Assembly: GCA_009783855.1 (NCBI GenBank)
Contig: WRCO01000003.1
Span: 1-55,430, forward strand
Source of the DNA: Alphaproteobacteria bacterium
GTDB taxonomy: Bacteria; Pseudomonadota; Alphaproteobacteria; Rs-D84
Direction: 5' to 3'
Length of the DNA stretch: 55,430 nt
Made by a program: the position numbers and the translations under genes. This document shows positions 3,493 through 55,430 of the stretch, piece after piece. Position 1 is the first letter of the stretch. Each line of letters begins with the position of its first letter. The notes beneath the pieces were generated by a model, which saw only the letters and a list, made by a program, of their open reading frames with translations, searched no databases and had not been told where the DNA came from.

Positions 3493-4183
3493 ATTCTATC
3501 CCCACAATATATATTTCTGGATATTTCAATAACTCACTAAATTTCGGACTAGCGATTACATTATCAAATATCTCATTGTAATTTTTGTTATGGACGGAAA
3601 ATGCAATAGTAAATGCCTTTGATTTATCCGGAAATGTTGAAATGTTGCTTTTAGTTTTATCGCCAATCCATTTATCTAAGTCAGGCAGCTCCTTAATATC
3701 TTTTTTGTTCTCAATAAATTTAACGATTTGATTGATAGCTATGGTGTGCGATGACTGATTTTTATTATATTTTGCTTCCCCAAATGCAATAAAGTTGGTT
3801 GGAGTCTCTGTGTGAAAGTCAAATCCAGGATTTCCACGTTTCTTCTCTTTCCATAATTCAGCCAGTGGAATTTTGTTATGACGGTGATGTCCTACAAGCA
3901 AATCTTGCGCCTGTGTTGATACTATTATTTCACCTAAGTCTCCTGAAATTGGATTAACAACATTGGTTAGAATTCCCGATACGATTTTTGCTATCGTCTC
4001 TTTGGCACGAGCTTCATAGCCCAATTTTGCCATAATGTCTAGGCTGTTTATCCAACTAGTATCAGATATGCTTTTTTGTATCTTTGTGGCCAACTTTGCT
4101 ACATCAGAAACTTGGGCATGAATAAAAGAAATCGTGCAATTATCTTGCACTTTTTGTTGTGTCTGATGGATATTTAGGCACAC
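3482..4183 (-). CDS. PD-(D/E)xK nuclease-like protein, HamA (DUF1837)-like
   Basis: GDLGE...GFDF...FGEAKY motif pattern. It overlaps the helicase start, and AGGAG precedes the GTG start. Confidence 0.65.
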   Translation of the reverse strand: MCLNIHQTQQKVQDNCTISFIHAQVSDVAKLATKIQKSISDTSWINSLDIMAKLGYEARAKETIAKIVSGILTNVVNPISGDLGEIIVSTQAQDLLVGHHRHNKIPLAELWKEKKRGNPGFDFHTETPTNFIAFGEAKYNKNQSSHTIAINQIVKFIENKKDIKELPDLDKWIGDKTKSNISTFPDKSKAFTIAFSVHNKNYNEIFDNVIASPKFSELLKYPEIYIVGIEFVN

Positions 4184-6017: not shown

Positions 6018-6716
6018 TCAAAAAATCTTGGTAAGCATTTTGGAAAGAGTCTTGCCGTCGCTTGCGTCATCGTATGCGATTTTACCCATGGATAAAATTA
6101 TCGCATTGTCGGTAAGCGGCAACAGGGTTTTCAAATTATGTTCCACGATTATAAAACCGGTTCCGGTTTTTTTATTTATTTCGCGAAGTTTGTGAAACGT
6201 GTCGCTTATAAGTTTCGGCGCAAGCCCGATACTGGGTTCGTCCAGCACCAGCAATTTCGGTTGATTGATAAGCCCGCGCGCAAGCGCGACCATCTGTTGC
6301 TGCCCCCCGGAAAGATTTCCCGCCATATCGTCAAGCCGGTTACGCAAAGCCGGAAAGTGTTTAAGAACTTTATCCAGCCGTGCGGAAAATTCCGCGCGGT
6401 TGCCCCAATGGTGCGTCGCGATTTCAATATTGTCGCGCACGGACATGTTTGGGAAGACCCGCTGACCCTGGCCAATCATAAACACGCCGTGTTTTATCCA
6501 GTCCGCGGGGCTTGCGGGAGCGGAAAATTTTCCGCCCACAGATATATCCCCGCTCATCGGCCGCAACAACCCCATCATAGTCTTAAGCAAGGTCGTCTTG
6601 CCGCATCCGTTCGGTCCCATAATCACGGTGATTTTGGACGGGTCGAATGCGACGCTCACGTCGCTTAAGACAACTTTGTCACCGTATCCGGCCGTAATAT
6701 GATTAAGTTTTATCAT
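6018..6716 (-). CDS. livF: Branched-chain amino acid ABC transporter ATP-binding protein (LivF-like)
   Basis: Walker A GPNGCGKTT, signature LSGGQQQM, LDEPSIGLAP. Confidence 0.85.
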   Translation of the reverse strand: MIKLNHITAGYGDKVVLSDVSVAFDPSKITVIMGPNGCGKTTLLKTMMGLLRPMSGDISVGGKFSAPASPADWIKHGVFMIGQGQRVFPNMSVRDNIEIATHHWGNRAEFSARLDKVLKHFPALRNRLDDMAGNLSGGQQQMVALARGLINQPKLLVLDEPSIGLAPKLISDTFHKLREINKKTGTGFIIVEHNLKTLLPLTDNAIILSMGKIAYDDASDGKTLSKMLTKIF

Positions 6717-7807
6717 TTCACTATCACCGTTATTCCGTTTTCTATTTTACGAAGCGTGCCCGGGGAATTTATAACCCCGGACGGCGCCGTCGTGATGGTG
6801 CCGATGGCCGTTTCCATCCCGCCGGTTTTTTCAAGAATCGTCCGCGCGGCGGCGGCGTTATCGGCGGTGTCCGGATTTGCTTCGAACGCTTTGGTCAGAA
6901 TCTGCAATATCGCATAATAATATTCCGCATAGTTCGTCACCCGGGTCCCCGTCAATCGTTCGAACCTTTCTATGAAATCGTCGCTCCACGGGGCGCCGTC
7001 GCCGTAATAGAATCCTTCGGCAAGACTTTTGTCTTCCAAAAACGAAAACGATTCCACGCTTATCACCGGGATTGTCATATTCAATTGATGATACTGGCGC
7101 AAGAATATGGCAATTTCCGGCATAAAGAACTGTGCGAAAATCACATCGGGCGCGTCATTATTGACGCGGTGCAATATGGGGCGGAAATCCCGCTCTCCCC
7201 TGTTTACCGGGTGGACATTCCGGACCGTGATTCCCGTGCCTTCCAATTCGCCGCGCAGCACGTCAAGAAATATCTGTTGCACGGATGTGATTTCATGAAC
7301 GTAATCTATGGTCCGTGCGCCCGTGTTTTGCAGATGGCGGATTACTTCGCGCGCCTTGTCTTCGGCGGATGTTACGATGGTGAAATTATAATCGCCCTGG
7401 GCGACGTTCGGGTCTGTCGCCGTGGATATATGAATCACGCCGGCGCGTTCTGCAATCGGGTTTATCGCGCCGCCGATATGCGATGCAAAGGATACGATGG
7501 CATTGACCCGGTTGGCGGCAATCATTTTTCGCGCGCTGGTCGCGGCGGTTGCGGATTGAAACCGGTTGTCTTCAAAGAATACTTCATATCTGAAATGCGC
7601 CGCGTCCGCGTCGAAATCGTCGAAGAACAGTCGGACCGCATGCTGTGCCGAGCGTCCGAATTTCGCCGCTTCGCCCGACAGGGGCATGGAGAACCCAATC
7701 CGGATAACGGGCCGCGGGTCGGATGACATATATGCCGGCCGCATTGCGAAGAACGCAAAAGCGGCGATAACAACGGCGCCGACGATTATCAAAAGTTTTT
7801 TGCTCAT
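6713..7807 (-). CDS. ABC substrate-binding protein, LivK/type-1 periplasmic fold (paralog 1)
   Basis: N-terminal TM anchor, RIGFSMPLSGEAA..G, FEDNRFQ; located in the liv cluster. Confidence 0.85.
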   Translation of the reverse strand: MSKKLLIIVGAVVIAAFAFFAMRPAYMSSDPRPVIRIGFSMPLSGEAAKFGRSAQHAVRLFFDDFDADAAHFRYEVFFEDNRFQSATAATSARKMIAANRVNAIVSFASHIGGAINPIAERAGVIHISTATDPNVAQGDYNFTIVTSAEDKAREVIRHLQNTGARTIDYVHEITSVQQIFLDVLRGELEGTGITVRNVHPVNRGERDFRPILHRVNNDAPDVIFAQFFMPEIAIFLRQYHQLNMTIPVISVESFSFLEDKSLAEGFYYGDGAPWSDDFIERFERLTGTRVTNYAEYYYAILQILTKAFEANPDTADNAAAARTILEKTGGMETAIGTITTAPSGVINSPGTLRKIENGITVIVK

Positions 7808-7825
7808 ATCATCCTCCTTATCACT

Positions 7826-7843
7826 TGTTTACTATAGTAGATA
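7826..7843. repeat. 18-bp palindrome copy 1 (TGTTTACTATAGTAGATA)
   Basis: Degenerate TGTCYACTATAGTRGACA just upstream of the paralog-1 RBS, followed by a period-7 array at 7852-7886. Confidence 0.8.
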
Positions 7844-7897
7844 TCTTTTTTCAAATCACTAATCACTGGTCACTTGTAACTGATTAATGGTTGAAGG

Positions 7898-8992
7898 TCA
7901 CTCCATTCTTACCGGCACGCCGTTTTCTATTTTTCGCAACACAGTGGGCGCGTCGATAATTCCGCCCGGACATATCGTGACAACGCCGATAACCGTTTCC
8001 AATCCGTCGGTCTTTTCAAGGATAGCCCGCGCCGCGGCGGTATTGTCCGCCGCATCCGGATTTGCTTCGAACGCCGTTGTCAGGATTTGCAGAATCGCGT
8101 GCATATATTCCGCAAAGTTCGTCGCGGTGCTTCCGACAAGCCGTTCGTACCTTTCTGTGAAATCGTCGTTGCCGGATGCCGTGGCGACATAATACAATCC
8201 TTCGGCCAATGTCTTGTCGCCAAGAAACGAAAACGAATCCGCGCTGAAAAGCGGGATTGTTATGCCCGACTGATGATACTGGCGCAGAAATATTGCGATT
8301 TCCGGTTCGGAAAATTGGGGAAGAATCATGTCGGGCGTATCATTCGCGATACGTTGCAGTATCGGGCGGAAATCACGCTCGCCCTTGTTTACCGGATAGA
8401 CGCTTTTAATTTCTATCCCGGTTCCTTTGATTTCGGATTTCAATGCGTTGATGAACACCTGTTGGCCGGATACAATTTCATGGACAAGAGTTATTGTTCC
8501 CACGCCAAGATTTTGCAAATGCCGGATTACCGCCTGCGCTTGTCCGCGGGCCGACGATATGATTATAAAATTATATTCGCCGCGCGCAACGTCCGGGTCT
8601 ATGGATGCCGAAATATGGATGACGCCGGCGCGTTCTGCAATCGGGTTTGTCGGGCCGCCGATATGCGACGCAAGGGATACAATCGCGTTGACCCGGTTGG
8701 CGGCAATCATTTTATGCGCGACGGATGCGGCCACGCCGGATTGAAAACGATTGTCTTCGAATATGATTTCGTATCTGTAATGCGCCGCGTCCGCATCAAA
8801 GTCTTCGAAAAACAACCTTACGCCATGGCGAGCGGCTTTGCCAAAGTGTGCGGAATCGCCGGACATCGGCATGGAGAACCCAATCCGGATAACGGGCCGC
8901 GGATCGGATGACATATATGCCGGTCGGATTGCGAAAAATGCAAAAGCGGAGATAACAGCGATGCCGGCGATTATCAAAAGTTTTTTGCTCAT
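7898..8992 (-). CDS. ABC substrate-binding protein (paralog 2, close to paralog 1)
   Basis: RIGFSMPMSGDSA..G; strong similarity to 6713..7807. Confidence 0.85.
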   Translation of the reverse strand: MSKKLLIIAGIAVISAFAFFAIRPAYMSSDPRPVIRIGFSMPMSGDSAHFGKAARHGVRLFFEDFDADAAHYRYEIIFEDNRFQSGVAASVAHKMIAANRVNAIVSLASHIGGPTNPIAERAGVIHISASIDPDVARGEYNFIIISSARGQAQAVIRHLQNLGVGTITLVHEIVSGQQVFINALKSEIKGTGIEIKSVYPVNKGERDFRPILQRIANDTPDMILPQFSEPEIAIFLRQYHQSGITIPLFSADSFSFLGDKTLAEGLYYVATASGNDDFTERYERLVGSTATNFAEYMHAILQILTTAFEANPDAADNTAAARAILEKTDGLETVIGVVTICPGGIIDAPTVLRKIENGVPVRME

Positions 8993-9010
8993 ACCATCCT
9001 CTTTATCAGT

Positions 9011-9028
9011 TGCCTACCATAGTAGACA
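9011..9028. repeat. 18-bp palindrome copy 2 (TGCCTACCATAGTAGACA)
   Basis: Upstream of paralog 2; period-7 array at 9037-9085. Confidence 0.8.
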
Positions 9029-9075
9029 TCTTTTTTATAATTACTAATCACTGGTAACTGATTAATGATAACCGA

Positions 9076-10206
9076 TTACTGGTCACCAGCCGGCGCAACC
9101 GACCGGCCGTCACGTATTTCGCGGATTACGGTGGGGACAAGGATGTTGCCGTCGTCGTCCGTCCTCAGCGTCGCCAATGATGTCCGAAGTCCTGCGGTGT
9201 TTCTTATCATGGATTCCGCGACCGCTTCGGGTGTCGGCTTTTCGCCGGGTGCGGCGTCCGCCATTTCCCACGCATTGACAAGTATGTTAATCATCATGTA
9301 CGTCGCTTCGGCGTAATAGGTGTCCGTCCGCCCAAGGACGCCTCCAAACCGGTCAAGCCATTCGGGCGTGGCGGTCACATCCCGAACTTCCCACATTCCT
9401 TCGACCAATGATTTATCGGTGACAAGTCCGATGGTCTGTTGTCCGGTCACGGGAATATTCAAATTATTCCGCCGCATGGCTGTGATAAACCTGTCGGAAT
9501 CCGGCGGCATTAATTGCATAACCACCATGCCCGCGCCGGATTGCCTTATCTGTCTTACCATCACGTCGAAATTCTGTTCGCCCGGACGAATGCGGAAGGT
9601 CGGCCCAAGCGTAAGAGTATCGCGTGCGTTCGCCTGTCGCACGATTGTATCGTACAGTATGGTGTTGGCGACGTCGCTTCCTCCGATGACCGCAATTTTA
9701 TTTACGCCCTGGGCCTGCACACGGGAAAGAAGTTTATCAATCGCCGCTTCCATATCAAGGGTCAGGCGAAAGGCAAAATCACCGTCGCTTGTCGCCGGGT
9801 CAAGCGTATAGTTCAGATTGATAATCCGATGCCTGTTGATAATCGGATTGATGGCAAGCGCCATACCCGAAAAAATACTTACAACCGCGTCGGCCCTTTG
9901 ATTTCGCGCAAAGCGGTGCATTATGGTTACTGCCCGCGCGGTCGAAAATTGCACGTCTTCCCAAATTATCTCATACCTGTATTTCGCGTCCGGATTTTGC
10001 GCTTTCCATTCCGGCATGAACGCGTCGATAACCCGGCGGTTGACATCGCCAAACGCCGCCATGTCGCCCGTCATCGGATACAGCATGACAACCCTGACGA
10101 CAGGCCGGCCATCATCGGATTTGTCCGCGCCGCGCGGTACAAGCACAAACGCCGAAACAGCCGCCGCAACCAGCCCAATAATTATCAAAAGTTTTTTCTT
10201 TCTCAT
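9076..10206 (-). CDS. ABC substrate-binding protein (paralog 3, divergent)
   Basis: PMTGDMAAFG, EDVQFS; N-terminal TM anchor. Confidence 0.8.
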   Translation of the reverse strand: MRKKKLLIIIGLVAAAVSAFVLVPRGADKSDDGRPVVRVVMLYPMTGDMAAFGDVNRRVIDAFMPEWKAQNPDAKYRYEIIWEDVQFSTARAVTIMHRFARNQRADAVVSIFSGMALAINPIINRHRIINLNYTLDPATSDGDFAFRLTLDMEAAIDKLLSRVQAQGVNKIAVIGGSDVANTILYDTIVRQANARDTLTLGPTFRIRPGEQNFDVMVRQIRQSGAGMVVMQLMPPDSDRFITAMRRNNLNIPVTGQQTIGLVTDKSLVEGMWEVRDVTATPEWLDRFGGVLGRTDTYYAEATYMMINILVNAWEMADAAPGEKPTPEAVAESMIRNTAGLRTSLATLRTDDDGNILVPTVIREIRDGRSVAPAGDQ

Positions 10207-10231
10207 TATGTTTCCTTTTTCATTTTATCCG

Positions 10232-10256
10232 TTGTCCTTACTACTATAAGGGACAA
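10232..10256. repeat. Palindrome variant copy 3 (TTGTCCTTACTACTATAAGGGACAA)
   Basis: Upstream of paralog 3; GTTGTTA/GCTGTTA array at 10261-10282. Confidence 0.6.
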
Positions 10257-10284
10257 GCCAGTTGTTAGCTGTTAGTTAGCTTAT

Positions 10285-11163
10285 CTAAACTCTGCATTCC
10301 GTCCGCTTCGGCTTCTGCGTAAATATGCCCCGTGGGCGAAGCCACAACAGGATGATAAATATCACAAACGCCACCAAATCGCGCCATTGCGACGCAAACA
10401 TCCAAACGCCGATATTCTCCGCGCCGGCAAGCACCATCGCGCCAAGATAAGCGCCAAGGATGGTCGGGCCGCCGATGATGGCCGCAATCATTCCTTTGAA
10501 TAAGATATTAAAGCCCATAAGCGGCTCCATACCCGTATCGTATCCGACGCACAATCCGTACGCGCCAAGAATTGCGCCGGCAATCACGGACACAATCATC
10601 ACCACGCGCGGGACATTTATGCCGACAAGGTTTGCCAAAGGCGGGCTGTCGTGAATCGCGCGAATGGTCTTGCCGAAAAACGTGCGTTGCAACATGAACG
10701 ACAATCCGCCAAGCACTATGGCGGCGAATCCGACTATGACAACCTGGGTCGTTGGGATTCCGGCGACCCTTGTGAAATCAAGCGCACGGCCAAGCGTTTG
10801 ATATTGCGGCCCGAACGCAAGATGAATCGCGCTTTCGAAAATTGTATAAAGCCCAAGCGATATGATAAGCAAAACCATCGGTGACGCGCCGGACGCGCGC
10901 ACGGGTTTGAAAATAAACGCTTCAAGCGCCCATGTGAATGCCGCGACAAGCACGATTACAATCGGCCATGCCGCCGTCACGCCGAATACCGGTATCAATG
11001 CGAACCCAAGATACGCGCCAAGCGCCACCGACGCGCCAAGGGTAAGGTTGAAAAACGGCGACACCCAATGCATAAGGCGGAACGCCATCGCCATAAGCGC
11101 GTACCCGCTGCCGATGATTAATGTATTAAGAAGCAATTGTTGTAACATTATTTGAATATCCAT
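10285..11163 (-). CDS. livH: Branched-chain amino acid ABC permease (LivH-like)
   Basis: Multi-TM protein with FGKTIRAIHDS...LANLVGINV and AAIIGG. Confidence 0.85.
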   Translation of the reverse strand: MDIQIMLQQLLLNTLIIGSGYALMAMAFRLMHWVSPFFNLTLGASVALGAYLGFALIPVFGVTAAWPIVIVLVAAFTWALEAFIFKPVRASGASPMVLLIISLGLYTIFESAIHLAFGPQYQTLGRALDFTRVAGIPTTQVVIVGFAAIVLGGLSFMLQRTFFGKTIRAIHDSPPLANLVGINVPRVVMIVSVIAGAILGAYGLCVGYDTGMEPLMGFNILFKGMIAAIIGGPTILGAYLGAMVLAGAENIGVWMFASQWRDLVAFVIFIILLWLRPRGIFTQKPKRTECRV

Positions 11164-11174
11164 AGTGGTCGGTG

Positions 11175-12296
11175 TTAGTGATAGGGTGTAGATGCTTTAT
11201 CCTGTTTACCGCCTCCACTACCACCTACCACTTTTCCATTTTCGATTCTGTACATAAGCATTGCCGATTGAAACGCGCCCGCATCCGTTATATCGTAATG
11301 CCCGGCGACGCCGTAATACGCGCGCATCCGTCGCATCTGTGCCGAAATATCTTCGGCGGATGGAATGTCGTCGGAATCAGACGCGGCGCGTTCGACAGCG
11401 GCGGCAAAGACCCGGACGCTGTCATAAAAATACGCCGCGAAGAAAGTCGACGCGCTTCTCATCCGTTCGACGAATTCGGTATTTCCCTGTGAATAGCTTA
11501 AGGTATAAACGCCTTCGAACAAAGAAAAGTCGTCCGTCACATTGGGCAGATTGAAATATACTTTTGTCCCGCCGACCTGTTGCATGTGCAATTCGCGCGC
11601 CAAGATATTAAGTCCCGGCGGCGAGGCGGAAATCACAATCAAATCCGGATTCCATTCCTTCATACGCCGGACAAGCATTGCGAAGTCGCGGTCGCCAAGA
11701 TTGCTGTCGAACCGTCGGACTTCCCCGGGCAGCTTGCCGTCCAGGCCTTCAAGAAGTTCAAGGGTGGTCCCGGAAATCTGAAACGCCAATGCAATCCTTT
11801 CGGGGTTTCTTGAATGTGCGAATTCCGAAAGTCCGCGGGTAATTTCGGCCGGCGTGGGAAAGAATGTAAAATTATAAACACCGTCAAGAACTTCGTGAAC
11901 GGGCGTGCCGTGAAGACCGATAAGCCCGTGCTGGATAATAAGCGGCGCTGTTGCGAACGCGCTTGGCGAAAACGCGGTTACAAGGGCGGAAACCCTGTTC
12001 CGCGCAATCATCTTGTTCGCGATGGAGACCGCTTGCCTTGCCTGATGTTGGTTGTCGTCGAAAATCGCCCGGTATGCGAACCGGTTGTCCGGATTGCCGT
12101 TGATGTCGGATATGGCGAAATTAATGGCGCGCCGGATGGCGTCCCCCATGTGTGCCATATCTCCGGAAAGCGGTAAAATCGCGCCGATTGTGACGACGGG
12201 CCGCGGGTCGGAAAATCGGTGCGCCGGACGAAGCACAAAAAGCGCCGCCACCGCAATTGCAATCACACCGATGATTATTAAAGCTTTTCTTTTCAT
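11175..12296 (-). CDS. ABC substrate-binding protein (paralog 4)
   Basis: TIGAILPLSGDMAHMG, FDDNQHQ. Confidence 0.85.
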   Translation of the reverse strand: MKRKALIIIGVIAIAVAALFVLRPAHRFSDPRPVVTIGAILPLSGDMAHMGDAIRRAINFAISDINGNPDNRFAYRAIFDDNQHQARQAVSIANKMIARNRVSALVTAFSPSAFATAPLIIQHGLIGLHGTPVHEVLDGVYNFTFFPTPAEITRGLSEFAHSRNPERIALAFQISGTTLELLEGLDGKLPGEVRRFDSNLGDRDFAMLVRRMKEWNPDLIVISASPPGLNILARELHMQQVGGTKVYFNLPNVTDDFSLFEGVYTLSYSQGNTEFVERMRSASTFFAAYFYDSVRVFAAAVERAASDSDDIPSAEDISAQMRRMRAYYGVAGHYDITDAGAFQSAMLMYRIENGKVVGGSGGGKQDKASTPYH

Positions 12297-13375
12297 TTTA
12301 TTTCTCCGTCTTTTATGTATCTGATAATGCTTCCTGGGAAAATCGTGCCTTTGTCGTTCATGGAAAGCCGGCCGTTTATGCCGTCGTATTCCGCGATTAT
12401 GCCAAGCAGGCGTTCGCGCAGATTTGTCGTATCCCGGCCGTATTTTTCAAACAGGCGGTGTATAATCATAACGTTGTCAAAGCTTAACGCGGCCGAAGCG
12501 TCCGCCACCCGGCCGCCGAATCGCACGGCGTATTTTTCGGCGAATTCTTCCGTACCGCTTGGAATATCGACAAAGAAATCATCGTTGAAAAGCGTCTTGT
12601 CCGGCGTGAACGCAAACAGATACAAAGTCGTAATTCTTCCCCGGAATCCCTGTTGACGCAATTCCCGCGCAAAAAGCGACAGTATAGGTTCATAAGTGTA
12701 CATCATGACGACGTCGGGATTTGTGGCGACGACGCGCGCGGCTTCCTGTCTGAATTGCCGTTCCGCGGGCGATAATCTTTCCGTTCCGACGATGCGTATG
12801 CCGGCTGTTTCCAATTCGGGCGTAAGGGCTCTCATGACCGCTTCGCCCGCCAAATGTTGAAACGATACAAGGGATATGGTTTCAAACCCCCGCTGTTTCA
12901 AATATCCGGCAAGCTGCCGCGACACCGAATCCAAATCGGAATTATGGTTAAACGTGGATTCGTTGTCGGACACGGCATAATCGGCGGAAAGCGAAATATG
13001 CAGAATCTCGTCGCGGCGAACCCTGTCCCGCAATGCGTGTCCCATTGCCGCGTTGCCGGACAACAGGACGTCTATTCTGTCGACATTTCGCAGCTTTTCA
13101 TAAACGACGATGCCGCGGGCCGCATCGAATCCGTCCTCTATCACGACACGGTATCTGTATCTGTTGTCCGGGTTGGAATTTATTTTTTCAAGCGCCATGA
13201 TAATGCCGGACCTTGCGGATGTTCCGATAACGGCGTTATTGCCGGACAGCGGCAGAATCGCGCCGATTGTGATAACGGGCCGCGCATCCGACGACAGATA
13301 CGCCGGACGCATCGCGACAAACGCCAAAGCGGCGATTGCAATCACGCCAATCATAATTAAAAGTTTTTTTCTCAC
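12293..13375 (-). CDS. ABC substrate-binding protein (paralog 5)
   Basis: TIGAILPLSGNNAVIG; GTG start after AAGGAG. Confidence 0.85.
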   Translation of the reverse strand: MRKKLLIMIGVIAIAALAFVAMRPAYLSSDARPVITIGAILPLSGNNAVIGTSARSGIIMALEKINSNPDNRYRYRVVIEDGFDAARGIVVYEKLRNVDRIDVLLSGNAAMGHALRDRVRRDEILHISLSADYAVSDNESTFNHNSDLDSVSRQLAGYLKQRGFETISLVSFQHLAGEAVMRALTPELETAGIRIVGTERLSPAERQFRQEAARVVATNPDVVMMYTYEPILSLFARELRQQGFRGRITTLYLFAFTPDKTLFNDDFFVDIPSGTEEFAEKYAVRFGGRVADASAALSFDNVMIIHRLFEKYGRDTTNLRERLLGIIAEYDGINGRLSMNDKGTIFPGSIIRYIKDGEIK

Positions 13376-13392
13376 ACCACTCCTTTACTGTT

Positions 13393-13410
13393 TGTCTACT
13401 ATAGTAGACA
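13393..13410. repeat. 18-bp perfect palindrome copy 4 (TGTCTACTATAGTAGACA)
   Basis: Upstream of paralog 5; period-7 array at 13412-13460. Confidence 0.9.
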
Positions 13411-13446
13411 ACTGTTAACTACGGCCCGTTGCCTGCTAACTACTGG

Positions 13447-14535
13447 CTAATAACTGACAAGCACCGGCCTGTTGTTCTCGATTCTATGCAGAACCGCGGA
13501 TGACAAGAACGCGCCGTGGTCTGTTATGTCTATGTGTCCGGCGACGCCTTCGTGCCGGCGAATTCTTTTCATCGCGGCCGAAATATCTTCGGCGGACGGT
13601 ATGGCGTCGGAATCGGACGCCGCCGTTTCGACAGCCTTTGCAAAAACAACTATGCCGTCATAAAAAAGAGGCGAGAAGAAAGTCACGGAACTTCCAATAC
13701 GTTCGATGAATTCGTCGTTTCCCTGGGATACGTCCACGCTGTACGCCCCTTCGAACAAAGAAAAATCGTCCGTCAATCCGACAAGCCCAAAGTGCAGCTG
13801 TGTCGCGCCGACCCGTTGCAAGTGCATTTCGCGGCCGAAAATATTCAACGCCGGCGGATTTATGCCGACGAAAATCAAATCCGGTTGAAATTCATTGATA
13901 CCGCGGACCATCATTGCGAAATCGCGGTCGCCGTCGTTGCTGTCGAATCTTCGGACTTCGCCCGGCAGATTTCCATGCAACCCTTCAAGAAGTTCAATGG
14001 TCGTTCCCGCGGGTTGAATCGACAAGGCAACCCTTTCGAAATTTCTTGATTTCGCGAATTCCGAAATGCTGCGGATAAATTCGGTCGACGCAGGCTGGAG
14101 AGTAAAATTATACACGCCGTCACGCGCGCCTATAACACCCGTGCCGTGAAGACCGATAATCTGGTTCCGGACAAGTACAGGCGCCGTCGCGTAAGCGTTT
14201 GCGGAAAACAGAGTCACCATGGCGGAGACCCTGTGCCTTGAAATCATCTTGTTGGCGATGGGCACCGTAAGTCTGGTCTGCATTTGATTGTCTTCGAAAA
14301 CCGCGTGGTATACGAACCGGTTGTCCGGGTTTTTATTGACGTCTTCGATTGCAAAGTCGATGGCTTTTCGTATCATCTGTCCCATGTGCGCCATATTTCC
14401 GGAAAGCGGAAGAATCACGCCAATCCGCACCACAGGCCGCGGGTCGGACGGCATATAAGCCGGCCGAAGGGCAAACAGCCCCGCCGCAAGAATTGCAGCC
14501 ACCCCAGCAATTATCAAAAGTTTTTTTCTTTTCAT
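13447..14535 (-). CDS. ABC substrate-binding protein (paralog 6, close to paralog 4)
   Basis: RIGVILPLSGNMAHMG, FEDNQMQ. Confidence 0.85.
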   Translation of the reverse strand: MKRKKLLIIAGVAAILAAGLFALRPAYMPSDPRPVVRIGVILPLSGNMAHMGQMIRKAIDFAIEDVNKNPDNRFVYHAVFEDNQMQTRLTVPIANKMISRHRVSAMVTLFSANAYATAPVLVRNQIIGLHGTGVIGARDGVYNFTLQPASTEFIRSISEFAKSRNFERVALSIQPAGTTIELLEGLHGNLPGEVRRFDSNDGDRDFAMMVRGINEFQPDLIFVGINPPALNIFGREMHLQRVGATQLHFGLVGLTDDFSLFEGAYSVDVSQGNDEFIERIGSSVTFFSPLFYDGIVVFAKAVETAASDSDAIPSAEDISAAMKRIRRHEGVAGHIDITDHGAFLSSAVLHRIENNRPVLVSY

Positions 14536-14554: not shown

Positions 14555-14572
14555 TGTCTACTATAGTAGACA
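14555..14572. repeat. 18-bp perfect palindrome copy 5
   Basis: Upstream of paralog 6; period-7 array at 14581-14625. Confidence 0.9.
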
Positions 14573-14622
14573 TCTTTTTTATAATTGCCAATCACTGGTC
14601 GCTGATTACTGGTAACTGATAA

Positions 14623-26348: not shown

Positions 26349-26435
26349 TTTCAGTGTGAAGTGTGAAGTTGTGGTTGTCGGCGAAGCCGACGCCACAACT
26401 TCACACTGAAAAAACGCGCCTTTCGGCGCGTTTTT
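26349..26435. terminator. Long heptamer-containing hairpin followed by terminator hairpin
   Basis: TTTCAGTGTGAAGTGTGAAGTTGTGG..GTCGGC-GAA-GCCGAC..CCACAACTTCACACTGAAA, then CGCGCC-TTTC-GGCGCG flanked by A/T runs. Confidence 0.7.
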
Positions 26436-28829: not shown

Positions 28830-29237
28830 AACTAACAACTAACAGCTAACAACTAACAACCTGGTACAGGCGGGTTGTTTTTGCTTGTTCTTATCGTTGA
28901 TGATATTAATTTCACAAGCTCTTTGCAATCCGAATAGATGCTCTCAAACTGTTTCTCTGAAATAAATTCGAGGTTAAGCCAGTACAAGGTCTCCTCGCAT
29001 TCTTTGAATGCAATATGAAATTTAGCTATGAAATCTTTTCTGCTGCTTGCACAGTATGCTTCGGACAAGTTGGCGCCGATACTTGTGCCGGAACGAATGA
29101 CTTGCTTTGATATTACAAACTCTTTCTTTATCTCGCCCAAATATTTGCACATCTTCACGATTCTTGCCGCGAACAAAGCAGATTTTTGCAAAATGGGTTT
29201 GTCTTTCATATAAGCTGTTAGCTGTTAGCTGTTAGTT
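28830..29237. mobile_element. Four-helix-bundle cassette bracketed by inverted heptamer arrays
   Basis: The left arm (AACTAAC/AGCTAAC)x4 at 28830-28860 is the reverse complement of the right arm (GCTGTTA)x3+GTT at 29214-29237. Confidence 0.55.
28853..29209 (-). CDS. Four helix bundle protein (TIGR02436 / 23S-IVP-like)
   Basis: KSALFAARIVK, KQVIRSGTSIGANLSEA, SRKDFIAKFHIAFKECEETLYWL. Confidence 0.92.
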   Translation of the reverse strand: MKDKPILQKSALFAARIVKMCKYLGEIKKEFVISKQVIRSGTSIGANLSEAYCASSRKDFIAKFHIAFKECEETLYWLNLEFISEKQFESIYSDCKELVKLISSTIRTSKNNPPVPGC

Positions 29238-51943: not shown

Positions 51944-52097
51944 GGTGGTTGGTGCCTGGTGATTCGTGGCTGGTGTTGGTGGCTCGTAGGGGCGCAAAGC
52001 ATACGTCCCCATTGTTGTCCACTATAGTGGACAACTTTTAACTGATTACGGACCACCAGCACAGGCGACGAATCACCAGCACCAGCCACCAGTAACA
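51944..52097. repeat. ~150-bp imperfect inverted repeat centred on palindrome copy 6 (52016-52033)
   Basis: Left GGTGGTT/GGTGCCT/GGTGATT heptamers mirror the right CACCAGC arm; core GTTGTCCACTATAGTGGACAAC; GTAGGGGCG REP at 51986-52010. Confidence 0.8.
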
Positions 52098-52143
52098 AAT
52101 AAAACTTGATTTCGGCAAAAATATATGCCAAAATCAGACCCGT

Positions 52144-52220
52144 GCGAGCGTAGCTCAGTTGGCTAGAGCGCAACCTTGCCAAGGTTGAGGTCGAGGGTTC
52201 GAGCCCCTTTGCTCGCACCA
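52144..52220 (+). tRNA. tRNA-Gly(GCC)
   Basis: Cloverleaf, anticodon loop TTGCCAA, discriminator A73, encoded CCA. Confidence 0.96.
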
Positions 52221-52222
52221 CA

Positions 52223-52345
52223 CTTCGCGTCTGCGACGCTTCGTGTGGCTTCGCCGCACGAAATGCGGAGTGGCAGAGTCCAACGAAGCCTTGGCGAAGT
52301 TGGATGAGAGGCGAAGTAGTGCCCGCCGAAGCCCAAAGGGCGAAG
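52223..52345. repeat. REP-like cluster downstream of tRNA-Gly
   Basis: CTTCGCGTCTGCGACGCTTCG, CCAACGAAGCCTTGGCGAAGTTGG and GCCCGCCGAAGCC...GGCGAAGGCCGGGC. Confidence 0.7.
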
Positions 52346-52460
52346 GCCGGGCCGATACAAGGGAACACAAATGCTTATGGTATCAAAAAAATTCAAATAG
52401 AACGCGCCACGAAAATTTCGCGGGCGCTTTTGGCGTCCGTTTTTTAATAAAGGAAATGAA

Positions 52461-52697
52461 ATGACAGTAAAAACACCCGAACTTGTAATGTGCGGATATC
52501 ACGGCTGCCACGTGGTCCCGCCGGCCGAAGGCTGTAAATGCACGGGCTGCACTTCATACACCGCGCGTTGCGAAAACTGTGCAGAGCCGAGAAAACGCGC
52601 GGACAAACAATTCGCAAACGACGATTTTCATTTTGAAATCCGCAAGTGCCAGGAATGTAAAAAACGCGCGGCCGACATGATGAACACGGGACGTTGA
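52461..52697 (+). CDS. Small Cys-rich hypothetical protein
   Basis: ATG after AAGGA; ten Cys including CxxC pairs. Confidence 0.6.
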   Translation: MTVKTPELVMCGYHGCHVVPPAEGCKCTGCTSYTARCENCAEPRKRADKQFANDDFHFEIRKCQECKKRAADMMNTGR

Positions 52698-52725
52698 ATT
52701 AAAAATAATGCAAAGGAGTATTAAA

Positions 52726-54195
52726 ATGCCAGAACAGACAACCGCCATATCGACGAACGAATTAGAGGCACGGCTGCAAAAAATGGAAAATATTCGCGCG
52801 CGCGATGGTGTCGTATGGAAAGACAAATACGAACGCACATCCACAATCGCTGAAGCGCGCGGATTGAAAGACGGAACCGCTGTGCGTTTGCCGGGTCGCG
52901 TTATCGCGCTTCGCTGGTTGGGTAAGCTTATGTTCGGCCGCATTTACGACATGGACGGCGAAATCCAATTCTCACTGTCGCTTGCCGACATCGGCGAAGA
53001 ACAGTTCAAGTTCTTGAAAACCAACTTGGACATGGGTGATTTTATCGGTGTTGCGGGCGAACTGTATACCACAAGCGCGGGCGAATTGACCGTCAAGGGC
53101 ACGGAAGTCATCGTATTGGCAAAGGCTTTGCGTCCGCTGCCGGAAAAATATCACGGCCTTACCGATACTGAAACAAGATATCGCCAGCGTTACCTGGATA
53201 TCATCGCCAATAAAGATTCGCGCGATGCTTTGATTGGTCGATTTCGCATGACCAAAAATTTACGCGATTTTATGACCGGCCACAACTTTTTGGAGATCGA
53301 AACGCCAATATTGCAAAGCGTCGCATCCGGCGCGGCGGCAAAGCCGTTCACGACGCACCACGATGCTTTGGATACGGATTTCCAGTTGCGCATTTCACCG
53401 GAATTGCCGTTGAAGCTTGCCATCGCCGCCGGATTTGACCGCGTGTTTGAAATCGCAAAAGATTTCAGAAACGAAGGGATGAGCCCGATGCACCTTCAAG
53501 AATTCACGATGATTGAATGGTACGCCGCGTATTGGGATTTTCGCGACAATATGAAATTCACGTGGGAATTGATACAGCATTTGATACGCGAATCCCGTGG
53601 AACGTTACAGATTGAATACCAAGGAACAATGATGGATTTCAGCAAGCACGACATGCTTGATTATACCGCAAAGATGAACGAGCTGTTCGGGTGCAACGTG
53701 TTGGAATTCGACTGTGCGGATGCGCTTCGCGCGCAATTAATAAAGGACAAAATGTTCACCGCAGACGAATTGGAACCGTATGTATCGGTGCCGACACTGG
53801 TCGATTTTGTTTACAAACGGAAAATTCGCCCGAATATAATCCAGCCGACGTTCCTGTACAACTATCCGGCGTACATGGTGCCGCTTGCGCGCAGGAATGA
53901 TGAAGACGAACGGCGCATCGATATGTTTCAACTGCTGGTAGATGGCGCGGAGCTTTGCAAGGGTTATTCGGAACTTGTGAATCCGATACAACAGATGGAA
54001 GCATTCGAAGAACAGGCGCGAAACATGTCCGCAGGTGATGAAGAAGCGTTCCGTCCGGATACGGATTTTGTAAAAGCGATGGAGCACGGCATGCCGCCGC
54101 AATCCGGCGTGGGTATCGGCCTTGACAGATTGGCCAGTTTTATATTCGACTTGCCAAGCCTGCGGGATACCGTACTGTTTCCGATGGTGAAATAA
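52726..54195 (+). CDS. lysS: Lysine--tRNA ligase, class II
   Basis: OB-fold, PEKYHGL.D.ETRYRQRYLD, IETP, FRNEG, EFTMIE, GIGLDRL. ATG 52726. Confidence 0.96.
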   Translation: MPEQTTAISTNELEARLQKMENIRARDGVVWKDKYERTSTIAEARGLKDGTAVRLPGRVIALRWLGKLMFGRIYDMDGEIQFSLSLADIGEEQFKFLKTNLDMGDFIGVAGELYTTSAGELTVKGTEVIVLAKALRPLPEKYHGLTDTETRYRQRYLDIIANKDSRDALIGRFRMTKNLRDFMTGHNFLEIETPILQSVASGAAAKPFTTHHDALDTDFQLRISPELPLKLAIAAGFDRVFEIAKDFRNEGMSPMHLQEFTMIEWYAAYWDFRDNMKFTWELIQHLIRESRGTLQIEYQGTMMDFSKHDMLDYTAKMNELFGCNVLEFDCADALRAQLIKDKMFTADELEPYVSVPTLVDFVYKRKIRPNIIQPTFLYNYPAYMVPLARRNDEDERRIDMFQLLVDGAELCKGYSELVNPIQQMEAFEEQARNMSAGDEEAFRPDTDFVKAMEHGMPPQSGVGIGLDRLASFIFDLPSLRDTVLFPMVK

Positions 54196-54223
54196 TGGTG
54201 GCTGGTGGTTGGGGACTCGTAAT

Positions 54224-54294
54224 TAAAGGTTGTCCACTATAGTGGACAACCTTTATTTCATGCGTTAATTAATGATTGTCTAATATATTAGACA
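54224..54294. repeat. Palindrome copies 7 and 8 between convergent lysS and smpB
   Basis: 32-bp perfect palindrome at 54224-54255 and TGTCTAATATATTAGACA at 54277-54294, flanked by heptamer arms. Confidence 0.9.
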
Positions 54295-54318
54295 GCCGTA
54301 CCAGCCACGACCCACAAA

Positions 54319-54789
54319 TCATTTTTTCTTTAACACTCTTCCTTTTTCCCTTTCCCATTCGCGTTTTTTTATCGTCTGGCGTTTGTCGCGCTGTTGCTTT
54401 CCATGTCCGACGCCAAGCAGTACTTTCAACCGCCCGCGGTTGTTGAAATACATTTTAAGCGGCACGATGGTCGCGCCTTTTTCGGCAAGTTTGCCGACAA
54501 GCCGTTTGATTTGCGATTTGTGAAGCAATAATTGGCGATACCGGCGTTCATCGAACCGCACGGCTTTGTTCGCGGTCGGAAGCGCCATGATGGCGACATT
54601 GGACAGAATCAGATTCCCGCCGCGATGCTGAACAAACCCGTCGGATATGTTGACCATGCCGTAACGCAAAGACTTCACTTCGGCGCCCGTCAAACTTACG
54701 CCCGCTTCGATGGAGTCTTCAATAGCATAATTGAACCGCGCTTTGCGGTTTTCCGAAACCTGTCCAGATTTTATAATTTGTCTTGGCAT
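54319..54789 (-). CDS. smpB: SsrA-binding protein
   Basis: ENRKARFNY, EAGVSLTGAEVKSLR, LLLHK, DKRQTIK.REW.RE. Confidence 0.97.
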   Translation of the reverse strand: MPRQIIKSGQVSENRKARFNYAIEDSIEAGVSLTGAEVKSLRYGMVNISDGFVQHRGGNLILSNVAIMALPTANKAVRFDERRYRQLLLHKSQIKRLVGKLAEKGATIVPLKMYFNNRGRLKVLLGVGHGKQQRDKRQTIKKREWEREKGRVLKKK

Positions 54790-54822
54790 AACGGCCGAAT
54801 GTTAACAAGGATTCCGGAAAAA

Positions 54823-55179
54823 TCAAGAAATCTTGTCGGCGATGTCGCGCAAGGCTTCCATCATATAATTAAGGTCCATGTTAAGAACGCTTGGGTCTAT
54901 TGCCGCGGCCGGTTGATACGACACAATGCGCGACGCCGAAAGTTCGCGAAATATGGTAATCGTATCGCCTTTGGCGGGGGCTTCGATAAACGTGACGCTT
55001 CCGCCGCTGTGTCCGAAAGTTGGATTTTCCGGCAATTCGGGAAGCATGATTTCATATTCGGACGCCGGGACGGAGAGGCCGTTTTTATGGACGCGCACAT
55101 CGCCGGCGCGCCATACGTTGAACGCGAAATGGAATTGTTGTATTTCGCCATTCGCAGTGTATGCGATTCTTGTATTCAT
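54823..55179 (-). CDS. Stand-alone protein resembling a phage tail-fibre N-terminal anchor domain
   Basis: YTANG...F.F.F, GGSVTF.EAPAKG..ITIFR, LN.DLNY; there is no fibre body. Confidence 0.6.
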   Translation of the reverse strand: MNTRIAYTANGEIQQFHFAFNVWRAGDVRVHKNGLSVPASEYEIMLPELPENPTFGHSGGSVTFIEAPAKGDTITIFRELSASRIVSYQPAAAIDPSVLNMDLNYMMEALRDIADKIS

Positions 55180-55273
55180 ATTTTTTCCTTTTTATGCATA
55201 AAAAACCGCCCCCGGGACGGGAGCGGCAAGCGACGCCATTATATCACAAAAAGGAAGACAAGTCAAACAATCA

Positions 55274-55299
55274 CAAGGGCAAATAATATTTGCCCCTAC
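55274..55299 (-). repeat. GTAG-type REP hairpin
   Basis: Minus strand GTAGGGGCAAATATTATTTGCCC. Confidence 0.7.
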
Positions 55300-55370
55300 A
55301 TTATTTGGGGGAACTGTTAAGTTATTAGAACAATCTCAGAAACTCCCAATTTTCAGTTTCCGGTTTTGAC

Positions 55371-55430
55371 TGTCTACTATGGCAGACAACCATAAAAACG
55401 GCAGAAAATCAAGTTGTCTAATATATTAGA
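55371..55430. repeat. Palindrome copies 9 and 10 (last one truncated by window end)
   Basis: TGTCTACTATGGCAGACA at 55371-55388 and TGTCTAATATATTAGA at 55415-55430. Confidence 0.8.

Follow-up and report, generated by a model that had tools for sequence, protein, structure and literature searches.

What does a short palindrome do when it recurs, singly and in pairs and in several variants, between genes of no common function? The question is posed by contig WRCO01000003.1 of an alphaproteobacterial genome assembly (GCA_009783855.1), whose positions 1 to 55,430 are here called the window, and by the palindrome TGTC[CT]A[AC]TATA[GT]T[AG]GACA, which has eight matches in the window at up to three mismatches against 0.06 expected from 100 shuffles. 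An earlier note on this DNA had taken the palindrome for the core of a mobile element with heptamer arms and had read the symmetry of its variants as that of a hairpin or of a site of recombination. The analysis reported here favours, on balance, a different answer, namely that these 18-20 bp palindromes are operator-type sites of homodimeric helix-turn-helix (HTH) repressors of the family PF21716 and have been multiplied at gene ends. The parts of this answer differ in strength: it is very likely that PF21716 repressor dimers bind such palindromes at the level of the family and likely that they bind the copies in the window, while a role of the bound gene-end sites as boundaries of transcription, read from their position, is put forward tentatively.

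An orphan antitoxin-type repressor gene flanked by the palindrome

A gene with palindromes on both sides was first met in two genome bins and encodes a 101-aa protein of the family PF21716 (dnstrm_HI1420, 'probable addiction module antidote protein'), which comprises HigA-like antidotes partnered with Gp49 toxins and corresponds to COG3636 ('DNA-binding phage protein'). A protein search returned 37 close homologues of about 101 aa. A source name is available for few of them, and the named sources are alphaproteobacterial, Rickettsiales or proteobacterial bins. Many of the homologues lie on very short contigs, assemblies breaking at copies of the palindrome, and more than 20 loci were inspected. 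None of these orphan HTH loci has an adjacent toxin gene. In all of them a palindrome is located 34-49 nt upstream of the ATG, and wherever the contig reaches beyond the gene a second palindrome follows 2-24 nt (usually 2-9) past the stop codon. The upstream copy forms the arrangement TTGTC[CT]-17 nt-TATAAT in 18 of 20 HTH loci, so that -35 box and spacer of the promoter of the gene itself lie within the site, as is classical for a presumptive autorepressor.

The same type of palindrome occurs in five toxin-antitoxin operons which came from matches first taken for chance and which belong to three Phenylobacterium species (L050, L068 and L083), to Acidipropionibacterium (L086) and to another proteobacterium (L056). 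In all five only 1 nt separates the end of the palindrome from the start codon of a gene for a Gp49 toxin (PF05973), and a PF21716 antitoxin gene follows the toxin gene in each of the four loci that are long enough, L056 ending within the toxin gene. L050 has a TTGACC box 18 nt 5' of the central TATAGT, and the palindrome therefore covers the promoter -10 box; the toxin mRNA of this locus is, to judge from this arrangement, probably leaderless. A dyad-symmetric site that overlaps the promoter of an HTH-encoding gene or operon is thus found, in related loci rather than in the window.

That an antitoxin binds an operator overlapping its own promoter is the general rule of type II systems (PMC5906591). 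The HI1419/HI1420-type operons of a Gp49 toxin and an HTH antitoxin in reverse order (HigBA2, Tad-Ata and the HigBA group of A. baumannii) have the PF21716 family in common with the orphan genes, and the Phenylobacterium, Acidipropionibacterium and other proteobacterial operons in addition carry the identical 18-bp type of palindrome over their promoter. Unlike these operons, the loci described here lack the toxin gene, the HTH gene is an orphan with several paralogs of different specificities, and the operator is present not once but in many promoter-less chromosomal copies.

The link to the window is made by two contigs, L098 and L100, in which the exact site variants of the window bracket HTH genes; the TGTCTAATATATTAGACA variant, for example, brackets the gene of P0024 in L100. 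L098 stems from a sample that also holds the window locus, and the tetranucleotide composition of the HTH contigs correlates with that of the window at r = 0.91-0.93 (0.97 for the organism's own contig). Site variants, shared sample and tetranucleotide composition are the only features that tie the HTH contigs to this organism.

One orphan protein, P0029, is encoded in a T7-like prophage region with genes for a T7 capsid, a terminase, a head-tail connector and DnaB (L096; ERZ27257305 k141_1105507, 4834-25139). Its gene sits between divergent gene blocks and is surrounded by seven of its own palindromes, as in a phage immunity region, a position that by analogy would be typical of an immunity gene.

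The core of the site tracks the recognition helix

The outer TGTC/GACA and the central TATA of the palindrome are invariant, and only a few discrete types of core occur. Proteins with the sequence ...FYK(M/I)LS (LYK or LYR in the antitoxins) are paired with the core CTATAG (class C), those with an SRSS or SRPG helix and N-I (one Q-M) with the core ATATAT (class A), and those with the Asn-Met helix SKSGFYNM with CCTTTATAAAGG (core TTTATAAA). The variable residues, 67-73, form the recognition helix predicted by the structure model. The match between site class and helix is without exception in 18 orphan variants and two antitoxin lineages. When the class was predicted blind from the protein before the DNA was seen, all five predictions were correct (P0029, P0002, P0016, P0024 and P0033), and 12 metagenome loci then agreed with the same rule. 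A single 69-kb contig encodes both P0020 (class C) and P0029 (class A), each beside the site variant of its class.

In standard protein-DNA recognition chemistry Lys and Arg pair with G:C and Asn with A:T. We infer that the Lys or Arg of the helix reads a G:C pair of the core and that Asn reads an A:T pair. Because the core tracks the recognition helix, the seemingly compensatory variants are discrete operator classes of homodimeric repressors and not the product of free covariation in a stem. The symmetric variation to which the earlier note drew attention is therefore real, though it is not free: it falls into few classes which follow the PF21716 helix. What the note had made of it, a hairpin or a recombination site, is mostly unsupported, since the variants co-vary with the recognition helix of the bracketed protein.

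Copies of the palindrome in the window

The window contains eight full copies and one that is cut by its end, all of them intergenic; those which the earlier note had listed are present at its coordinates. The copies comprise two classes of site, C and A. Two sites carry paired copies. The note's observation that the palindrome extends beyond the ATP-binding cassette (ABC) cluster, in pairs and between the convergent genes lysS and smpB, is borne out as well. At this convergent site a class-C palindrome at 54231-54248, with the lysS stop codon 35 nt upstream, lies within a 38-bp dyad (54221-54258) that has an A-tract on its 5' and a T-tract on its 3' side, and is accompanied by a class-A palindrome (TGTCTAATATATTAGACA) at 54277-54294, 24 nt past the smpB stop codon on the other strand; the two centres are 46 bp apart. 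The class-C copy at 52016-52033 (TGTCCACTATAGTGGACA), to which the 18-mer at 54231 is identical, is part of a perfect 22-bp dyad (52014-52035), which a terminator scan flags as terminator-like on the + strand, and is placed between the stop codon of a 356-aa gene (51943) and the promoter of tRNA-Gly.

The second pair lies at the end of the window and consists of a decayed class-C palindrome at 55371-55388 (TGTCTACTATGGCAGACA; two mismatches, symmetry at seven of nine positions) and a class-A palindrome truncated by the window end at 55415-55430, whose full form TGTCTAATATATTAGACA is present in the public contigs L089 and L090. These two independent ENA contigs of the locus both end 18 nt past the window, just after the class-A palindrome, and an exact extension of the window end sought in JGI metagenomes gave no match. 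Beyond the window end the class-A copy is followed in L089 and L090 by GTTTT-TATAAA, which yields TTGTCT-N18-TATAAA and resembles the promoters of the HTH genes in its spacing.

The remaining copies belong to the ABC cluster (6713-14535), which encodes five paralogous substrate-binding proteins (SBPs; Peripla_BP_6) of the branched-chain amino-acid type. A class-C palindrome at 14555-14572 separates a gene for a livF-like ATPase from SBP5, whose start codon follows after 19 nt, and is overlapped by a sigma-70-like TTGGCA-17-TACTAT; a second class-C palindrome at 13393-13410 lies 17 nt before the start codon of SBP4. Decayed class-C palindromes precede the start codons of SBP2 (9011-9028) and SBP1 (7826-7843) by 18 nt each, and a remnant with symmetry at four of nine positions is found about 31 nt before the ATG of SBP3 (10238-10255). 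All five paralogs thus have an upstream copy or remnant, and most are only 25-34% identical to each other (SBP1 and SBP2, 68%). The upstream modules together with the first ~25 coding nucleotides are far more alike than the proteins; the module of about 50 nt upstream of SBP5 is nearly identical to that of SBP1/2, whose proteins are ~33% identical to SBP5, which suggests conversion of 5' modules among the paralogs.

Three further structures of the window adjoin these sites. The segment 52221-52345 directly after tRNA-Gly is structured (RNA fold z = -4.4) and holds four units of GGCGAAG, a motif with 23 occurrences in the window against nine expected. On the - strand of 55205-55266 a near-consensus sigma-70 promoter (TTGACT-17-TGnTATAAT, at 55266) is followed, just upstream of a gene for 118 aa, by a terminator-like hairpin with a T-run that could be an attenuator or leader and has no match in Rfam. 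A 27-nt stretch overlapping the hairpin at 55272-55300 (core GGGGCAAATATTATTTGCCC) is 96% identical to positions 1401-1427 of L059, a locus of the bin WRJH, where it follows an unrelated gene, and is possibly a further conserved element of small size, a terminator or a repeat.

Heptamer arrays and the possibility of a plain hairpin

The earlier note had described the copy at 52016 as the centre of an inverted repeat of ~150 bp with heptamer arms, and this repeat is confirmed. Its left arm, (GGTGNNT)n at 51944-51988, was identified by a tandem repeat finder and begins directly past the TAA stop codon, and (CACCAGN)n at 52047-52099 is its inverted partner; the segments 51956-51988 and 52047-52079 are 82% complementary. 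The RNA fold of the whole module (51944-52100) has -96.9 kcal/mol on the + strand and z = -11.4 on both strands. Around the lysS/smpB pair a degenerate G/T-rich arm (TGGTGGC TGGTGGT TGGGGAC, 54198-54222) pairs in the fold with a degenerate C/A-rich arm (54296-54318) to form a closed stem (z = -6.6 and -6.0 in two folds), and these arms are not reported as an inverted repeat by the repeat finder. The copy at 14555 is preceded on the - strand by an A-tract and the heptads AATCACT GGTCGCT GATTACT GGTAACT GATAACT (14573-14622), and one-sided arrays that resemble it occur at 7844-7897 and 9029-9075. The arms are therefore real, and the palindrome often lies between inverted arrays, as the note had it; they vary in sequence and number from site to site, however, and the palindrome of about 20 bp alone is common to the copies. 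A strong 7-periodic array within 90 nt accompanies 16 of 71 palindromes against a background of 5%, so that the association is enriched and not obligatory.

Inverted heptamer arrays are also a separate feature of the clade. In the window and in L002, a locus of a related termite-gut bin, they flank a gene for a four-helix-bundle protein (PF05635) without any palindrome, and they are found empty or as plain hairpins as well. The PF05635 gene of the window ('23S rRNA intervening sequence protein'; TIGR02436) occupies 28853-29209 on the - strand within 28830-29237, directly abutted on both sides by the inverted arrays (AACTAAC)n and (AGCTGTT)n, and has neither a ribosome-binding site nor a promoter between array and ATG; the gene in L002 (6164-6761) is arranged likewise with a different heptamer. 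By analogy with rRNA intervening sequences it looks like an open reading frame (ORF) in the loop of a long stem. A long hairpin of AGTGTGA heptamers encloses GTCGGCGAAGCCGAC at 26353-26410 and is directly followed by a canonical terminator (26410-26430), and L002 has a similar heptamer hairpin at 4090-4140. The window's heptads include TAACTGA-like units; that heptamers serve as stop codons in three frames was rejected as a general explanation, the GGTGNNT arrays being mostly free of stops.

Such arrays have known counterparts. GGGAATC-type intergenic heptamer arrays occur in Xanthomonas and Nostoc, single or as inverted pairs, near the ends of ORFs (PMC4692102), and TAACTGA repeats occur in Beggiatoaceae, Cyanobacteria and Bacteroidetes (PMC4679880). 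The arrays described here resemble these and the short tandemly repeated repetitive (STRR) sequences of Calothrix in their 7-nt period, their intergenic, single or inverted arrangement, their position abutting ORF ends and a length that varies between related species. In the published arrays one heptamer dominates per genome and no palindrome is nested, whereas here the heptamer changes between sites, and what the arrays enclose is either an 18-bp palindrome, the putative protein site, or a gene for a four-helix-bundle protein.

These folds lead to the first alternative, according to which the palindromes are hairpins that act without a protein, either in RNA as bidirectional intrinsic terminators or stabilisers of 3' ends, often capping a heptamer stem, or in DNA as cruciforms. 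It accounts for the perfect stems of 9-11 bp with a TATA loop, for the strong folding of the two composite modules, for copies directly after stop codons and in convergent gaps, and for the A-tract before and the T-tract after the dyad at 54221-54258. The copies at 52014 and 14555 are scored terminator-like, and two relatives have a canonical terminator right after the stop codon of the 356-aa gene, at the position of the 51944-52100 module. Structure alone, however, should allow any compensated pair, whereas TGTC/GACA and TATA are invariant and the variants track the helix. No more than 3-5 G-C pairs are present in a stem. The flanks are A/T-rich for about 8 bp, but a T-rich tail is present in just 30% of half-flanks; in the ABC cluster the T-tract lies 3' of the hairpin on the antisense strand only, which is also the strand on which the terminator scan scores the 14555 copy; and a strand test of the imperfect copies revealed no consistent strand compatible with G-U pairing. 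A scan of Rfam at gathering and E-value thresholds returned tRNAs only, the palindromes matching no family. A purely structural role is for these reasons improbable.

Position of the dispersed copies and the remaining alternatives

Away from the HTH genes the palindrome seldom adjoins a promoter. A -10 hexamer at operator spacing is present in 16 of 158 half-sites and at none of the copies in the window. The genes beside the copies, among them lysS, smpB, tRNA-Gly, pth and lpxD, have no function in common, and many copies lie 2-16 nt past a stop codon. Of the gaps away from HTH genes 12 are co-directional, seven convergent and three divergent, counts that draw on called genes, and on manual calls for the window, a crude gene caller being unreliable at 50% G+C; in a bin of low G+C, where ORF calling is safe, eight of nine occupied gaps are convergent. 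The earlier note is supported in seeing a dispersed, multi-copy intergenic element rather than the operator of one promoter, with convergent and gene-end positions over-represented. The note had regarded a restriction of the copies to promoter positions of a coherent regulon as the mark of a transcription-factor site, and no such restriction is seen. Its choice between the two was too narrow, as the element still looks like a site of a transcription factor.

One copy can be followed into another genome. The palindrome between livF and SBP5 is 17/18 identical at the orthologous site of L059, which represents another species and keeps the A-tract and the ribosome-binding site, the adjoining heptads differing in sequence and number. 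At the position of the 51944-52100 module four relatives, other than the two with a terminator, have a small ORF, and the tRNA-Gly promoter is retained in relatives, where the palindrome is missing.

According to the second alternative the palindrome is the core of a selfish element, of the kind of a miniature inverted-repeat transposable element (MITE) or a repetitive extragenic palindromic (REP) sequence, and a substrate of recombination or transposition mobilised in trans. In a variant of it the unit of site, HTH gene and site would be the master copy, in the manner of REP repeats and their REP-associated tyrosine transposase (RAYT). The element is indeed multi-copy and strictly intergenic, assemblies break at it, a gene is bracketed by its own class of repeat in differing genomic neighbourhoods, a tandem array varies in copy number within one species, and the module of ~50 nt recurs before SBP5 and SBP1/2 in spite of their divergence. 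What speaks against mobility is that the bracketed protein is a 101-aa HTH protein without a catalytic domain and that no recombinase is seen beside any copy, although the earlier note had looked to a flanking Y1, serine or tyrosine recombinase. The arms are constant in neither sequence nor length, no consistent target-site duplication is seen at their ends, and no empty site was found, the corresponding position in relatives being taken by the small ORF or the terminator; the MITE of the note is accordingly not borne out. One copy is moreover conserved at an orthologous site across species, and the copies on viral contigs are single and unrelated. A mobile element is, in sum, quite unlikely.

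The third alternative, an ordinary regulon in which one repressor acts on promoter operators of coherent genes such as those for amino-acid uptake, draws on the SBP genes, all five of which have a copy or remnant upstream of the ATG (at 17-19 nt in four and ~31 nt in SBP3) despite their low identity, with promoter hexamers over the SBP5 copy and conservation of this site in another species, but it is very improbable in view of the rarity of hexamers at operator spacing, the many copies in convergent gaps or just past stop codons, the unrelated neighbouring genes and a density of about one copy per 2-6 kb.

Three further candidates were rejected. A phage promoter of the T7/SP6 type shares CACTATAG with the palindrome, but a repressor site agrees better with the variants TTATAA and ATATAT and with the connection to the HTH gene; no search for a single-subunit RNA polymerase was made. 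The NrdR box differs by 2 bp in the spacing of its half-sites. A general housekeeping promoter does not agree with the presence of ordinary sigma-70 promoters, at tRNA-Gly and at 55266, and most dispersed copies have no -10 hexamer at the right spacing.

Distribution of the palindrome

The LysS protein encoded in the window shares 80% identity with its counterpart in an alphaproteobacterial genome bin from a termite gut, and its wider relatives lie around 'Candidatus Enterousia' in a gut lineage with small genomes. The roughly 370 kb of DNA fetched from the closest LysS relatives lack any plausible copy of the palindrome and contain only two matches with three mismatches, both without the TGTC...GACA ends. 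In a scan of 596 Gb of genomes for the exact pattern, in which about 35 single matches are expected by chance according to our own arithmetic, multi-copy occurrence is limited to three groups: several alphaproteobacterial bins from termite guts and one bin each of Patescibacteria and Bdellovibrionota. The termite bins repeat the layout of the window, with two palindromes of different variants, about 15 nt apart, between a heptamer array and an inverted one, and their heptamers again differ by site (TAGGCAC, CTAACAG, TACCTAT, AACTAAA and others).

The palindromes of a 716-kb chromosome, OZ246409.1, are confined to the HTH locus and are arrayed there in tandem, one every ~70 bp; in this species the array has 6-14 copies, their number varying between samples, and it is outside this species that the density of about one palindrome per 2-6 kb applies. 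At this locus (L102, 262081-270383) an HTH gene of the alphaproteobacterial type adjoins pth and the array holds 12-14 palindromes; copy numbers of 6, 13 and 14 were recorded in different samples (L102, L094, L095 and L118). The label 'Muribaculaceae' of OZ246409.1 looks wrong. The array is reminiscent of a centromere or of one that serves titration. Taken together the lineages would form a series of three stages, from the single operator of a toxin-antitoxin operon through a local array beside an orphan repressor to copies dispersed over the whole genome.

In the Bdellovibrionota bin (L065, 4499-5086) a class-C palindrome brackets a gene for another HTH family, PF13744 (HTH_37), and in the Patescibacteria bin class-C palindromes occur in pairs upstream of rpsU (L035, 1547-1604; L088). 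The class-C site may be common to more than one XRE-type family or may have been transferred. Among viral contigs 47 have a match, which is single in all but one, and essentially none of the matches lies beside a gene of the HTH or toxin family; they are treated as chance. A phage collection contained one distant antidote homologue only. The palindrome strings did not occur in the literature text that was searched.

A proposed mechanism and its relation to known systems

The reading of the palindromes as PF21716 operators suggests the following course of events. In the ancestral state the site would have overlapped the promoter of a toxin-antitoxin operon. In the termite-gut group of Alphaproteobacteria the toxin would then have been lost, and the orphan repressor would have split into at least three specificity classes, its gene becoming bracketed by its own site variant while copies of the site multiplied in intergenic DNA. 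A bound dimer, often as a C and A pair atop a hairpin-prone heptamer stem, may stop read-through between neighbouring or convergent genes. Upstream of the SBP genes, and possibly at the end of the window, the site could act as a repressible promoter element where promoter hexamers adjoin it. Since the window contains both classes C and A, two repressor paralogs are predicted elsewhere in the genome.

Several points weigh against this proposal. No PF21716 gene is located within the 55-kb window, so that binding at the copies of the window is extrapolated from relatives. The structure model of the HTH protein is of moderate quality (predicted local distance difference test score, 67), and the XRE repressors that Foldseek lists with it (HipB, CylR2 and C.BclI) are not significant (E > 1); a sequence search of the PDB with the protein returned no relative. 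Joint inheritance of a gene and its flanks could in part account for the association of site class and helix, since each of the three classes belongs to one of three protein clades. A T-rich tail is found on one side or both at about half of the sites, which could terminate transcription as plain hairpins. The roadblock or boundary role is deduced from position alone.

REP sequences, and the REPINs formed from them, are short extragenic palindromes present in many copies, often at gene ends or between convergent genes, and the RAYT gene is a single-copy gene flanked by the repeat class that fills the genome, different classes accompanying different paralogs. The system described here is like REP/RAYT in combining a multi-copy extragenic palindrome with a class-matched gene that is flanked by it, and differs in that the flanked gene encodes a 101-aa PF21716 HTH protein and not a Y1 HUH transposase. 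Unlike REPINs its pairs consist of two different classes and not of two inverted copies of one, and unlike both REP and REPIN its outer arms are locus-specific heptamer arrays. The small dispersed repeats (SDRs) of Nostocaceae, reportedly described by Elhai and colleagues in 2008, are said to be dispersed repeats of about 20-27 nt without a known transposase that lie inside tandem heptameric repeats; they belong to a different phylum and have a different sequence, and we know of no cognate DNA-binding protein reported for them. With mitochondrial mTERF and with the roadblocks formed by LacI, CodY and CcpA the likeness is one of presumed function, in that a protein bound just past the end of a gene could stop RNA polymerase from either direction, whereas the palindrome-linked HTH protein has no homology to them.

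Taken to its full extent, the proposal would describe toxin-less HTH proteins derived from antitoxins or phage repressors that, together with 20-bp sites in several orthogonal classes, occupy hundreds of gene-end sites in alphaproteobacterial genomes of ~0.7-1 Mb, where pairs of dimers of different class within fast-evolving inverted heptamer arrays would serve as mTERF-like, protein-dependent bidirectional terminators or insulators, having spread like REP sequences without a transposase. All of this holding at once is rather unlikely. Each of the elements has been described before, namely operators of antitoxins, regulatory orphan antitoxins, repeats of the REP kind and arrays of heptamers; their combination, orphan antitoxin-type repressors co-diversified with a dispersed, mostly promoter-less gene-end operator set in heptamer hairpins, appears to be undescribed.

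If the proposal is correct, a repressor of toxin-antitoxin or phage origin would have been domesticated into a genome-wide DNA-binding protein, its operator having proliferated in the manner of REP elements while repressor and site diverged together into orthogonal classes. The pairing of Lys/Arg or Asn on the helix with C:G or A/T at one position of the site offers a simple recognition code. For metagenomics, the palindromes seem to break the assemblies of gut symbionts. The PF21716 repressors would be candidates for the protein partner that this type of dispersed bacterial repeat otherwise lacks, and would give an entry to two puzzles, the function of intergenic heptamer arrays and the spread of very short repeats in genomes without the aid of a transposase.

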